A stretch of DNA of 63,722 nucleotides, the filler included, from Reclinomonas americana ATCC 50394 (Eukaryota), in NCBI GenBank assembly GCA_048213135.1. It is 16 parts of 16 records of this genome, joined end to end, with 100 filler letters (N's around TTAATTAATTAA, not from the genome) between each part and the next. Parts side by side here need not be neighbours in the genome. Positions count along the whole stretch, not along the records: positions 29,159 to 35,230 come from AFZH01017636.1; 15 more parts are not named here. One strand, 5' to 3'. Shown in pieces: positions 30,541-34,577 of the stretch (positions are counted from its first letter, which is position 1; every line of letters starts with the position of its first letter). A program made the translations under genes and the position numbers. The notes beneath the pieces are model-generated. The model was given only the letters and a program-made list of their open reading frames with translations, was not told the origin of the DNA and did no database searches.

Positions 30541-33500
30541 ATGGTTGTCCGCCGCCCGCACTCACTCGAGTGGTTGTGTGTGTGTGTGTTGTGCGTGTGT
30601 TGTGTGTGCGTGATGCCAGTGCTCCTCCTCGCCCTCCGCAGCAACAGAGGAAGAAAGCATGGCAGATGGGGAGGGACGGCGATGTGGAGGCACTGCGCGA
30701 GTTGGTGGCGCGTGAGGGCGCACGCATTCTTCTGGAGAGAGACGAGATAGCTTTTGGCGGCTGGTCGGTGTTTTACTGTGCTGCTTGGAATGGCCACCTG
30801 CGTGTGTTGGAGTATCTGTGGGAGCAGAGTGGTGTCGGCCCGCAACTCGCACTCATGGTCTCTGATTATGGGTGGACTCCGCTCATTGCGGCGGCGGCCA
30901 ACGGGCATCGGCGAGTGGTGGAATGGCTGCTTGCCGATGAGCGACGATGCCCGCCGGCGACGGTGCTGGCGGTCACCAATGACCGCGATGTTCATCCACA
31001 GTCCACTGCGCTGCACTGTGCTGCCGAGGGAGGCCACGAAAACGTCGTGCGCCTCCTTGCCGATCGCCATCCCGAACTGATTGCCATGGTGGACGGGAGT
31101 GGCAAGACGGCGACTGACCGTGCGCATGAGAATGAAAAGCGACAAGTAGCCTTGTTGCTCGATCGCCTCATAGTGCCGCTTCCACCGCCGCCGGCGCCTT
31201 CACCGGTGCCACCGTCGCCTCCATTGTTGCCGGTCCCCGCATCTCCGCCATCGCAAGGTTTGATTTCCGTTCGACGCATTGTCATTTGCGTTTTGCCTGG
31301 GCTCGTTGGCACTCACAGCAAGCTTGTGCTATATATGGCACAGCATTGGCACGGCAGGTGAGAGTGCGTTGTGCTCACTGTTTTATTTGCCTCGCCTCTC
31401 GGTCCTGCATGTATATGTGCTCATCGACTTGAACGTGTGCAGGCGGTCGACGATGACTCCTGTGCTCGCCAACTGGCTGAGAAGGAGGGTGTCATTGCCG
31501 AACTTCAGCGCATTATTGCCGCCTTGCGACAAGAGCTGTCGCAGCAGCAGCGAGAGTTGAACCGGCTGGAAGTGGCGCACCAAGGCGTTGTGGCCCAACT
31601 GGAGAGTGCCATCGCAGAGCAACAGCAAGCCAGCGCTGAAGAGCAGAAGAACATTGCGTACTTGCGGCGAGAAAGGGATACGTTTCAGCAACAGGTCTCT
31701 CAACTGCGGGCCGAGCGGGATCAACTCGCATTACAGCGGGATGCGGCGGTTTACAGCGTGAACCGTCTCAAGTCTGACCTGGCAGCCGCGCAACTGGAAA
31801 CTGCTGAGATGCGCCATGCCACAGGTCTGTCAAGTTCCGTCTGTGTCTGTCTCTCCCTGTGGACCTCTGTTTCAGTGCCAGCACTTTTACAGCCACTGTT
31901 ATCGCGGAACGTGACCGGCTGAGGGAGAGAATTGCTACCGTGTCAGTGGAACGCCAGAGACTTCCCGCCGAGCAACCAACTGACGACACATCCTATTCCA
32001 GTCGCCAGGAACTCTTCGCCGACATGGTTGCAGAGCGACTTAGGAGCGAGCTGCTGGCCGCCGACGCCGACCGTGAGCGTCTGCGACGAGCGCTGGCTGC
32101 AGCCGAGCTCGTCGTTGCTGAACGCGACGAGTTGAAAGACAGGGTCAAAACCATGGACAAGCAGCTGCACGATCTTTTCGATATGGACTATCTGAGGTAC
32201 GTAGATCTGGTCGCTCTCTCGGTTGATGCTTGGGGCTGATGCGCCTAACGAAGTGTCGGATGTACAGCGACCGACGCCGAATCCTCTTGCTGACTGATAT
32301 TGTGCATGAGATTGTTCCTCTGGCTCTTGGCTCCCTCCTACAGCAACTCGTCACCGAATTTTTTCCTGGCGAATTCGACATCGAGCAACTCTGCCAGCCA
32401 GCACCACCGCCGAGGTTGGAGGAACAGTGACATACAACGTCTGTGGTTGGTTTGTACACTCACCTTGCCAGACAGATATTTCCGGGCGACTCTGGACGCA
32501 CGAGGCAATTTCCGCTTGCGCTCTGTCGAGCTGTTTCAGTCCAACTACGAAGCTATTCGCAAATTCAAGCATACCAGGGAGACGACGGACATGGATGTGG
32601 CACTGCTGAGCACGCTGCTATTGCACACAACCTATGTTCCAGCCGCCGTTTGTGGCGACGACAAGCTGACGTATGAGGGGAGAGTCGAATATTTTAATGT
32701 TGAAACGAACCATGACCGATTGGTTGTTCCACTGCTTGTTGACCCCGCCAAGGTGTGCTCTCGAGCTCTTTTTGTGTTAATACGACTGACAACTGCATGC
32801 TACCTTGCCTTTCTCACCTGGCACTCTGCGTCGCAGACTCAAGCTGTGCAAAACTTCAGGGACATTCGTCATCGTGTGTCCCATTTGGCTCGTCTCTCTT
32901 CGCTCGAAGACGCAGAGTATGTGAGCATCATGCGGCTTGTACGAGACTCGCTCCGCACGCTGTTCCCCGACGGAGAGCACGAGAGTATCCACCAGTTGTT
33001 CGAAGTATATCGCAGTTGCGACACTTGGTGCTTGACGCCGACATTTCAACACCATTCCTCCCACAGACTTACTTGTCCCCGACTCAGTTGCAAGCCGAAT
33101 CGATGCGACCGCTGAGTTGGTGAAGGCGAAGGCTGTCAGATTCGTCATTCGTGCACCGATTGTGCAGTTTGAGGAACTTGTGATTTCTCCGCAAGACCAG
33201 ATTGGAAGTGGTACGACAGTCTCCTTCGAGTTCGTGTCGTATGCACTGGAGGTCGTGAGCTGGTGCTCATCTCGTATGTGTGCACGGCAGGGCAAAACGC
33301 CGTCTATCGAGCCAGACTTCCACTTGGCGGTGAATTACGAACAGTTGCGTACAAGCGCTATTTCATCAAGCAGCAAGCACGCGGTGCACAGTCGGCGGAT
33401 GGGCAACGCATACGTCAGAACTGTGAGAGCGAACACTCTCTGTTGATGCAACTTGAGTTGCGTGCTGCATTTGTCATTGCATGCATATGTGGTGCATCAT

Positions 33501-34577
33501 GTTTGTCGCTCATGTGTCAGCACAAAGTCATCCACACATCGTGAAACTGATGGCCGTCTGTGATGACGACCCCAGTGGTGTTGGTCTTGTTCTTGAGTAC
33601 GTCGGTCAAGACGCAGCACAGGTAGTCGCAGAGACTCTCAAAGATGTTGTGGCGGATGAGTGCGTTTCGATTCAAGACCTGCTCAAGTTGCTCGTGCAAG
33701 TGGCGTCGGCCGTGGTGCATATGCACTCGCGACGAGTTGTGCATCGTGATCTAAAGCCGCACAGTTGCGTCCGCATCACAGTGAGAGAGAGAGAGAGAGA
33801 TGAGAATGCGCTACTGTGTCACGGGAGAGGCCTCTCGCAATTGTTTTCAGAGATCATGTGAGTTGACAGTTGATGTTGTGAGTTCAAGAGGACACGGTGA
33901 TCGTGACTTACTTTGTGATCGATATCGTCGCTGACAGTTTCCCTGTTAACAGACATTCTCATCAGCGAGGACCGATCCGTTGCCAAGGTGTGCGACTTTG
34001 ACGTTGCCAAATTTCACCCCACACTTGGCAACATGAAGACCAGCGTCGGTACTCGTGCGTACGCCGCACCAGAGACTATGCTGGACCAAGAGGTGCTCGA
34101 CTGGATGTTTTTTCCCACTGTAGTGTATGTGGCTTTCTCTCACAATTTCCGCCATCCACAGTACGACGAGCGAGCGGATGTCTATAGTCTCGGCTCACTT
34201 CTATGGTTCATCGCCACTCGCCGAGAGCCATTCTCCGGATTGTCGATGTCGGAATCGGCCATCATGCGCAACATGCTTGCGGGAACCTCACCGGCTGATT
34301 TGGATGATCCTGTCGTGCAGGAAACCGTGGCAGGGGACATTCGTAATCTCATTCGGCAGTGTTGGGTTGCGTGTTGACGACATGTGGGAGCCGTGAACAG
34401 AGAGGAGGCTTGTAGAACTAATTGTGTGTGTGTGCGATGCAGAGACCTCAAGCGACGCGCGTGTCGGCTTCGTATTTTCTCAGCGAAGTGAGCCGCTTGT
34501 GTGACATAGCGGCGGCTGCCACTGTGACGCATGCGGGAGGATCCGGAGTCGGATCGGCTGCTGCTGGTCCGAGCTAG
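30541..34577 (+). CDS. Ankyrin repeat / coiled-coil / DZIP3-like HEPN / protein kinase fusion (start uncertain)
   Basis: ANK repeats (GWSVFYCAAWNGH, GWTPLIAAAANGH, STALHCAAEGGH); coiled coil 31443-32190; HEPN-like MDVALLSTLL (32591) and VQNFRDIRHRVSH (~32846-32884); kinase VAYK, DHPHIVKL, HRDLKPHNIL, DFD, GTRAYAAPE, DVYSLG. All exons join in frame through GT-AG introns. Confidence 0.85.

Follow-up and report, generated by a model that had tools for sequence, protein, structure and literature searches.

The locus and its gene

The window analysed here is a stretch of 63,722 nucleotides (nt) from Reclinomonas americana ATCC 50394 (assembly GCA_048213135.1), and our subject is a predicted gene on its plus strand, at 30666-34577, which lies entirely within one contig of 6.07 kb (29159-35230). 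Judged from the sequence, this appears to be one intron-rich gene in which ankyrin repeats are joined to a long coiled coil, a middle domain of some 200-230 amino acids (aa) and, following that, a protein kinase. The splice model that we predict has 12 exons and 11 introns, all 11 of them GT-AG and between 52 and 189 nt in length, and it yields a protein of 1000 aa with zero internal stops, or a reading frame of 972 aa if an extra in-frame intron at 32753-32836 is used. An earlier, sequence-only reading of this DNA had held that all exons splice in frame into one protein, and that is indeed what the model gives; the peptide strings it quoted are all present on plus-strand stop-to-stop open reading frames (ORFs), in the frames and places it assigned to them, and the span in which it set the middle domain, 32270-33014, matches modelled exons 5 and 6. 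The domain content and the in-frame splice model can be taken as established in silico. The features of the gene are these:

30666-31257, plus strand: exon 1, with the modelled ATG start (a putative start codon), about four ankyrin repeats and then a Pro-rich linker (Pfam Ank_2 9.4e-20, Ank 4.5e-17)
31344-31357, plus strand: exon 2, a putative and uncertain micro-exon of 14 nt by which the coiled-coil exons stay in frame with the ankyrin exon (splice-signal pairs)
31443-31824, plus strand: exon 3, the first coiled-coil exon (translation; heptad z 3.1-6.2 over residues 206-290)
31893-32196, plus strand: exon 4, the second coiled-coil exon, with a break near PAEQPTDD (phases match; heptad z 4.3 over residues 388-430)
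32268-32414, plus strand: exon 5, 49 aa, probably helical, preceding the HEPN-like exon (residues 431-480; in-frame GT-AG junctions)
32476-33014, plus strand: exon 6, the HEPN-like domain (residues 480-659; sub-threshold Pfam HEPN_DZIP3 match, ESM Atlas neighbours)
32753-32836, plus strand: candidate extra in-frame intron of 84 nt inside exon 6 (residues 573-600; coding score, composition, splice position weight matrix (PWM))
32867-32884, plus strand: RHRVSH, a candidate Rx4H ribonuclease (RNase) motif (R611, H612, H616; motif match)
33067-33210, plus strand: exon 7, a linker and the start of the kinase amino-terminal lobe (N-lobe), up to the Gly-rich loop (IGSG) (splice model; too short for a Pfam match of its own)
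33291-33456, plus strand: exon 8, the kinase N-lobe with the VAYK lysine, K729, and the alphaC Glu region (splice model)
33528-33763, plus strand: exon 9, kinase hinge to catalytic loop, HRDLKPH, the N coming from the next exon (Pfam Pkinase 2e-12, 47.5 bits)
33953-34092, plus strand: exon 10, kinase N842, DFD (856-858), activation segment and APE (Pfam Pkinase 1.9e-13 on 33955-34374)
34162-34365, plus strand: exon 11, the kinase carboxy-terminal lobe (C-lobe), from DVYSLG to CW (Pfam Pkinase match on 33955-34374)
34443-34577, plus strand: exon 12, the kinase end (RP...) and a short tail, with the stop at 34575-34577 (donor tggGTTGCG at 34366, CAG acceptor)

How well does the splice model hold?

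Removing the intron at 33764-33952 recreates the kinase catalytic loop, HRDLKPHN, and removing the in-frame 69-nt intron at 34093-34161, which amounts to 23 codons, restores the normal spacing between APE and DVYSLG. In the unspliced kinase ORF, 137 residues align to 116 positions of the Pkinase profile, which fits the loss of those 23 codons. In addition, the first coiled-coil exon (31443-31824) has no in-frame ATG until its last six codons; a separate protein could therefore not begin in it, and it must join the ankyrin exon 185 nt upstream. The restored loop, the restored kinase spacing and the lack of a separate start for the coiled-coil exon, taken together, speak for a genuine gene model and against one that was only made to fit. 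The intron at 34093-34161 keeps the frame open, and a naive ORF annotation of this genome would count such introns as coding.

The candidate intron inside exon 6 deserves a word of its own. It has the lowest coding score in its exon (-0.06, as against 0.10-0.48 in non-overlapping windows) and an intron-like composition (T 0.33, GC 0.51), the introns of the gene having T 0.25-0.37 and GC 0.46-0.56 and its coding sequence T 0.22 and GC 0.57. With a PWM score of 7.2, its acceptor lies above the 95th percentile (6.8) of 440 AG sites, while its donor, at 2.3, is middling; splicing there would give the sequence ...VDPAK/TQAVQNF..., and the Pfam HEPN_DZIP3 alignment discussed below begins four residues before the 3' end of this candidate intron.

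The 5' end is where the sequence-only reading and our model part company. It had put the start at an ATG at 30541, the frame of which differs from that of the ankyrin ORF; such a start would need an extra 5' intron, for example 30580-30641 (donor PWM -0.8, acceptor 7.8), and our model begins instead at the ATG at 30666.

As to the splice signals themselves, an unusual donor hexamer, GTTGCG, is found at 4 of the 11 donors (33015, 33457, 33764 and 34366), the remaining ones being GTACG (twice), GTGAGA, GTCTGT, GTTTGA, GTTGGA and GTGCTC. The recurrent GTTGCG may be a lineage signature that would be useful for gene prediction in this genome.

Ankyrin repeats, coiled coil and kinase

The ankyrin repeats are secure. 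The Ank_2 match in exon 1 reaches 71.4 bits, where the cutoff is 27.3, and the Ank match is made up of three stretches, so that what had been read by eye as ankyrin repeats scores above the profile cutoff and far beyond chance. In the PDB, phmmer with this exon reached E<=1e-5 for 210 ankyrin-repeat sequences, and NOMPC came first (1.3e-29). The long coiled coil of the sequence-only reading is likewise borne out by heptad periodicity, with z up to 6.2: it covers some 225 aa (residues ~205-430), rich in A, R, L, E and Q and containing two Pro and two Gly, with a break in the periodicity near residues 350-385. Matches of exon 3 to Pfam coiled-coil families are weak and below cutoff (CortBP2 at 2.2e-5, for example).

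For the kinase, the two Pkinase (PF00069) matches score 47.5 and 50.8 bits, both beyond the cutoff of 31.7. The spliced model contains every one of the residues that the kinase had been said to keep, namely the lysine (K729, in VAYK), HRDLKPHN (835-842) and APE (880-882), along with D856 in the DFD (856-858) that stands in place of DFG, and it also has DVYSLG and the CW...RP ending. The Gly-rich loop, GSGQNAVY, is one residue shorter than the usual pattern. Among the 43 PDB sequences found at E<=1e-3 with the C-lobe, the closest solved kinases are TAK1 (9.5e-6), CTR1 (1.1e-5), MLT/ZAK (1.2e-5) and RIPK1 (1.9e-4), which makes the kinase similar to those of the tyrosine kinase-like (TKL) group. 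It is also very divergent, since a search of a collection of 5.8 billion proteins with the C-lobe gave only two matches among 548 candidates, both at 29% identity and both kinases without PF18738; exon 9 alone had no match in the PDB at E<=1e-6. The 44 aa that follow the kinase, in the last exon, have no Pfam match and are too short for a KEN domain. We did consider a KEN domain, and found no KEN Pfam match in any piece of the protein.

A candidate HEPN domain between coiled coil and kinase

The domain of greatest interest is the one in the middle. For exon 6, HEPN_DZIP3 (PF18738) is the sole Pfam family found at E<=10 (E 0.15, 12.3 bits), and the match sets exon residues 117-174 on profile positions 68-131 of 144, spanning RHRVSH and the two helices after it. 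When the whole of exon 6 is placed in the ESM Atlas, its neighbours are eukaryotic clusters from cnidarians and molluscs, with a top score of 0.93 and 185-187 of 256 features shared. The 30 matches include, at a score of at least 0.9, 12 in the PF18738 set and five in the DUF4559 set, and eight are family-less; in the rank-2 cluster 11% of members carry PF18738 and in the rank-11 cluster 38% do, a HEPN_Swt1 cluster stands at rank 16, and 8 of the 10 best family-bearing matches agree in family or clan.

Exon residues 1-92 lie outside the Pfam match and are without the Rx4H motif, and here the Atlas again returns HEPN families. Clusters of HEPN_DZIP3/DUF4559 come at ranks 3 (0.88), 4 (0.87) and 8 (0.81), all below 0.9 and graded by the tool as leads; DUF4559 is found in 73% of the members of the rank-4 cluster, rank 7 is HEPN_Swt1 (0.81), rank 8 is PF18738, and all 10 of the 10 best family-bearing matches fall within one family or clan. 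According to passages of PMC4554924, DUF4559 is the motif of human CXorf38, and a survey of HEPN domains lists CXorf38 as one of their families (PMC3710099, Table 1), so that every family label given by the Atlas is that of a HEPN family. Pfam and the Atlas, as different methods working from halves of the domain that do not overlap, thus arrive at the same rare superfamily out of some 25,000 Pfam families, and this makes a HEPN probable.

On these sequence comparisons we rate it as quite likely that the middle domain is a DZIP3/CXorf38-like HEPN, and its predicted catalytic competence as somewhat less likely than its identity. The HEPN_DZIP3 consensus runs broadly from a hydrophobic-D-hydrophobic-x-LL helix through 'iRdiRN...H' to an amphipathic helix with an aromatic residue; the middle domain seems to fit this well, with better spacing if residues 573-600 are left out.

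HEPN domains have been defined (PMC3710099, section 6) by an Rx4-6H motif with a polar residue after the R (mostly N, D or H) and by a conserved acidic residue upstream, typically in Ex3[KR]. RHRVSH (R611...H616) agrees with Rx4-6H, and H612 supplies the polar residue. Upstream of RHRVSH lie EAIRK (505-509), the pattern of which is that of Ex3[KR], and TDMD (517-520), both of them candidates for the HEPN acidic site. In the pearl oyster, going by excerpts of PMC9646362, 194 of 202 DZIP3-like HEPN proteins keep Rx4-6H, more often as Rx4H than in any other form, and the R is usually followed by Asn.

Exon-6 residues 57-91 (32645-32749, plus strand), which come after the first conserved helix and before the Rx4H region, appear to form a beta-rich stretch. 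HEPN domains tolerate inserts (PMC3710099), and these residues would mark the position of a non-helical one. The same residues dominate a phmmer search of the PDB with the domain, which gave six sequences at E<=10, none of them a HEPN, and which we set aside as repeat summation: five of the six are designed six-blade Kelch-like 'SAKe' proteins, matched over residues 57-91 only, at about 3-5 bits a stretch and probably by chance. The idea of an MLKL-like four-helix killer domain before the kinase was also entertained, and no result points to it. Exon 5 has no Pfam, PADLOC or NCBIfam match, the middle domain has no PADLOC or NCBIfam match, and when the window was searched by tblastn with the spliced model, the middle domain did not turn up a second time.

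Weighing the reading

Our best explanation is that one gene encodes a protein of about 970-1000 aa, made up of some four ankyrin repeats, about 225 aa of coiled coil, what is most likely a very divergent HEPN of the DZIP3/CXorf38 kind in which R-H-x3-H is intact, and a TKL-like kinase. For this combination as a whole we see the scales as roughly level; within it, the HEPN identity is probable on the sequence evidence, at a level below any curated threshold.

A fair number of points weigh against this explanation, and the first of them concern the profile match. The 12.3 bits are under half of the Pfam gathering cutoff of 27, a score that comes from a scan of the unspliced exon 6 product. As a control, four non-coding antisense ORFs of this gene and two of its short exons were scanned in the same way, and one antisense ORF gave a spurious match at E 0.038, which is better than 0.15, so that the Pfam HEPN_DZIP3 figure alone is noise-level. 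The two halves of exon 6, scanned separately, have no Pfam match. In the Atlas, 'recognition' of exon 6 was 2079, less than the 2300 that the tool sets as its mark, and a high score under that mark is weak evidence; for residues 1-92, besides scores below 0.9, only 110-115 features are shared. As for the motif, we shuffled the 228-aa middle region 20,000 times with its composition preserved: R[NDH]x3H turns up in 10.1% of the shuffles, and in 5.2% it does so with an Ex3[KR] upstream of it. The HEPN_DZIP3 assignment of the sequence-only reading therefore stands in part, favoured by the sole Pfam family and the HEPN neighbours in the Atlas and let down by its score; its RHRVSH is present and fits Rx4-6H, while the motif by itself does not go beyond chance.

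The search for relatives and for a fold adds to these points. By phmmer against 1.84 billion representatives, the middle domain has no homologue at E<=0.001 bar one spurious repeat match, to a bacterial-type repeat protein of 859 aa that aligns in six stretches on residues 62-94 and that we judge to be a summed repeat artefact. A word-indexed search of the 5.8-billion collection with exon 6 gave 708 candidates, none at E<=0.01, and a closer search of the same kind gave 80, none at E<=10; among JGI metagenome contigs there were 132 pattern matches, none confirmed by tblastn. A single-sequence AlphaFold2 model of the domain is too poor for use (mean predicted local distance difference test (pLDDT) 45, predicted template modelling score (pTM) 0.34); this low-confidence model shows helices and a beta insert, compatible with a HEPN fold but untrustworthy, and Foldseek with it found 0 matches in the PDB at E<=0.001, the top rows being unrelated proteins. 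A homodimer prediction for the 179-aa exon product gave no usable dimer, scoring 0.00 where the mark is 0.32, with the fold of the partner itself uncertain.

Two further points lie outside the middle domain. On the sequence, DFD for DFG and the short Gly-loop, GSGQNAVY, leave the predicted kinase activity in question. At the first junction, the best pairs of splice signals (31258-31343 and 31358-31442) are in frame only with the 14-nt micro-exon, single-intron alternatives exist there with weak donors, and the fragmentary assembly makes indel errors possible, at this junction among other places.

Much of this would suit an ordinary ankyrin/coiled-coil TKL signalling kinase, the middle domain of which is a lineage-specific, non-catalytic helical module, or else a degenerate HEPN remnant that only binds RNA, with RHRVSH there by chance. 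We regard this alternative as somewhat unlikely. Ankyrin repeats with a TKL kinase are a common theme (ILK, TNNI3K), the nearest solved kinases are of the MAP3K and RIPK types (TAK1, ZAK, RIPK1), and a noise-level profile score, a motif seen in 10.1% of shuffles and a domain with no homologue found and no fold or dimer support are all in its favour; what it has to set aside is that Pfam (residues 117-174) and the Atlas (residues 1-92) both point to HEPN from residues that do not overlap, that every family-bearing Atlas neighbour belongs to a HEPN family, and that the HEPN definition fits the polar H612 behind R611 and, as a candidate, the Ex3K further upstream. Were the middle domain not a HEPN, the gene would be a divergent ankyrin/coiled-coil TKL kinase of ordinary interest.

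Improbable, to our minds, is that the single-gene model itself is wrong and that we are looking at two or more genes (the ankyrin part alone, say, and then coiled coil, HEPN and kinase), at a pseudogene or at a mis-assembled contig: the first junction, at which the strongest donor and acceptor pairs are out of frame without the micro-exon, the chain of short contigs and a 5.8-billion collection in which no annotated protein with exon 6 was found are outweighed by 12 exons in one contig, only 52-189 nt apart and with no space for promoters between them, by a coiled-coil exon without a usable in-frame start, by canonical and phase-consistent signals at every other junction, two of which restore conserved kinase motifs, and by 1000 codons uninterrupted by a stop.

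Comparison with known systems

With the antiviral enzyme RNase L, in which the ankyrin domain binds 2-5A, the protein that we prefer to see here, an ankyrin-coiled coil-HEPN-kinase fusion, has three kinds of module in common: ankyrin repeats, a kinase fold and a domain of the HEPN superfamily. The differences are considerable. In RNase L and Ire1 the order is the reverse of that found here, where the HEPN-like domain is amino-terminal to the kinase and resembles DZIP3/CXorf38, and where no KEN follows the kinase, just 44 aa. Unlike RNase L, the kinase-like domain of which is a pseudokinase, the protein has a kinase that keeps its catalytic residues, a coiled coil of 225 aa and only about four ankyrin repeats. 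The fusion protein does not belong with RNase L and Ire1 in one family, because it has no KEN and only 44 aa after the kinase, and because its order is reversed. KEN is itself classed as a HEPN, fused to Ser/Thr/Tyr kinase and ankyrin domains (PMC3710099, Table 1).

Closer at hand are the DZIP3/hRUL138-like HEPN domains (PF18738) and CXorf38/DUF4559, the first the sole Pfam family to match (sub-threshold, over the Rx4H) and both of them the nearest language-model neighbours. As in these proteins, the R of the Rx4H is followed by a polar residue, and the HEPN sits in a multidomain protein beside interaction or signalling modules, as it does, for example, in the invertebrate HEPN-NACHT proteins that resemble nucleotide-binding, leucine-rich-repeat (NLR) proteins and in human DZIP3. 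Ankyrin is listed as a fusion partner of the DZIP3-like family (PMC3710099, Table 1), which, by the same table of 2013, has expanded in Nematostella, oyster and Capsaspora and has no kinase among its listed fusions. The protein kinase partner is therefore a departure from that list, and His after R departs from the usual Asn (excerpts of PMC9646362). Other differences are a score below the family cutoff, a long beta-rich insert after the first conserved helix (in the low-confidence model) and a host that looks like a non-animal eukaryote with short introns.

The TKL kinases TAK1, ZAK/MLT, CTR1 and RIPK1 provide the best PDB matches to the C-lobe and share with it HRDLKxxN, DVYSxG and the CW...RP ending, and ILK and TNNI3K, as ankyrin-repeat TKL kinases, also carry ankyrin and kinase in one chain. 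The kinase here differs from them in being very divergent (29% identity), with DFD for DFG and an odd Gly-loop, and in having a HEPN-like domain inserted between the coiled coil and the kinase.

Is the architecture new? In the parts of the literature that we surveyed, which did not extend to domain-architecture databases (InterPro), we found no fusion of HEPN_DZIP3 or DUF4559 with a kinase. HEPN_DZIP3 figures in those parts only as expansions, in oyster, amphioxus, coral, clam, Aplysia and cnidarian NLR-type genes, and the excerpts of PMC9646362 and PMC8195603 mention no kinase fusion. The sequence-only reading knew of no described family with this architecture, and the literature so far as it was surveyed is consistent with that. 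Probably the HEPN is of a known kind and it is the domain architecture that is new, without this amounting to a new category.

A possible mechanism, and what it would mean

HEPN RNases act as dimers with a composite site, and their cleavage leaves a 2',3'-cyclic phosphate; in Ire1 and RNase L, the kinase or pseudokinase domains control the KEN domains. By analogy, we can imagine that two chains are kept in register by a parallel coiled coil, a pairing that would set two HEPN domains side by side to form a metal-independent endoRNase site, the cost of dimerisation having been paid in advance. The downstream kinase could then switch the RNase through trans-autophosphorylation, through phosphorylation of a substrate or through its own dimer geometry, the ankyrin repeats would bind an activating partner or ligand, and the output might be RNA cleavage, and perhaps phosphorylation, in a response to stress, in defence or in cell death. 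HEPN RNases in general are metal-independent and use the R and the H of the motif (PMC3710099, section 6). An RNase L-like mechanism is an attractive proposal, made by analogy, and 'ligand-gated', 'antiviral' and 'convergent with RNase L', as the sequence-only reading had it, are to be taken as suggestions of the same sort.

In its fullest form, the proposal would be that a non-animal eukaryote independently built a kinase-coupled HEPN RNase, with an intact HEPN of the DZIP3/CXorf38 type, a coiled-coil dimer, an active TKL kinase and an ankyrin sensor, as an inverted second origin of the RNase L/Ire1 principle in the service of an antiviral, anti-retroelement or cell-death role. All of this together we think unlikely. 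If the HEPN RNase does work, it would be the first HEPN of the DZIP3/CXorf38 type that we have found described as fused to a protein kinase. In that case the protein would also offer, beside RNase L and Ire1, a natural experiment in convergent design, with the three module types in another order, another HEPN family and a built-in dimerising coiled coil, and it would help to separate what is essential in kinase-gated RNases, which is enforced HEPN dimerisation, from historical accident. It would also extend HEPN effectors of an innate-immunity-like kind beyond the animal NLR-type proteins with their expanded DZIP3-like HEPN.

The rest of the window

The contig of the gene is bounded on both sides by artificial linkers, and there are 15 identical ones in the window, each of 100 nt (N44-TTAATTAATTAA-N44, a six-frame stop spacer), which means that about 16 short contigs have been chained together:

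29059-29158, no strand: artificial contig linker, N44-TTAATTAATTAA-N44, the left border of the contig of the gene
35231-35330, no strand: artificial contig linker, N44-TTAATTAATTAA-N44, the right border of the contig of the gene
1253-1352, 6592-6691, 14958-15057, 17569-17668, 22092-22191, 25356-25455, 26825-26924 and 29059-29158: the first eight linkers
35231-35330, 37588-37687, 41017-41116, 43706-43805, 57634-57733, 59799-59898 and 62246-62345: the remaining seven linkers

Since the window is a chain of short contigs joined by linkers, gene order and neighbourhood across the linkers are unreliable, and the gene content of the neighbouring contigs gives no clue to the role of the fusion gene. 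Of 22 long ORFs in the window, three have Pfam matches at E<=0.001 (a PDK1-type PH domain, Myb and BRE1) and the other 19 have none at that threshold. The first of the three, at 25565-26344 on the minus strand, carries the PDK1-type PH domain (PH_3, 1.3e-17), and the next contig has, at 27124-27246 and likewise on the minus strand, a kinase-like stretch that tblastn aligns weakly (E 4.6e-6) with the catalytic-loop region of our model; the two are probably one PDK1-like kinase gene split by a linker. The other two, an ORF with a Myb DNA-binding domain at 51088-51876 on the plus strand (5.9e-8) and one with a BRE1 E3 ligase domain at 57884-59041 on the minus strand (1.2e-10), are ordinary eukaryotic housekeeping or regulatory genes.

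The region of the gene has a G+C content of about 50-58% and contains (GA)n and (CA)n microsatellites, and microsatellites stand at many contig ends. A (GT)n tract lies just 5' of the ankyrin exon (30570-30615) and a (GA)n tract just 3' of the stop codon (34600-35230); these tracts give rise to long SLSL, THTH and ERER pseudo-ORFs on both strands, and ORF calls there are likely artefacts.

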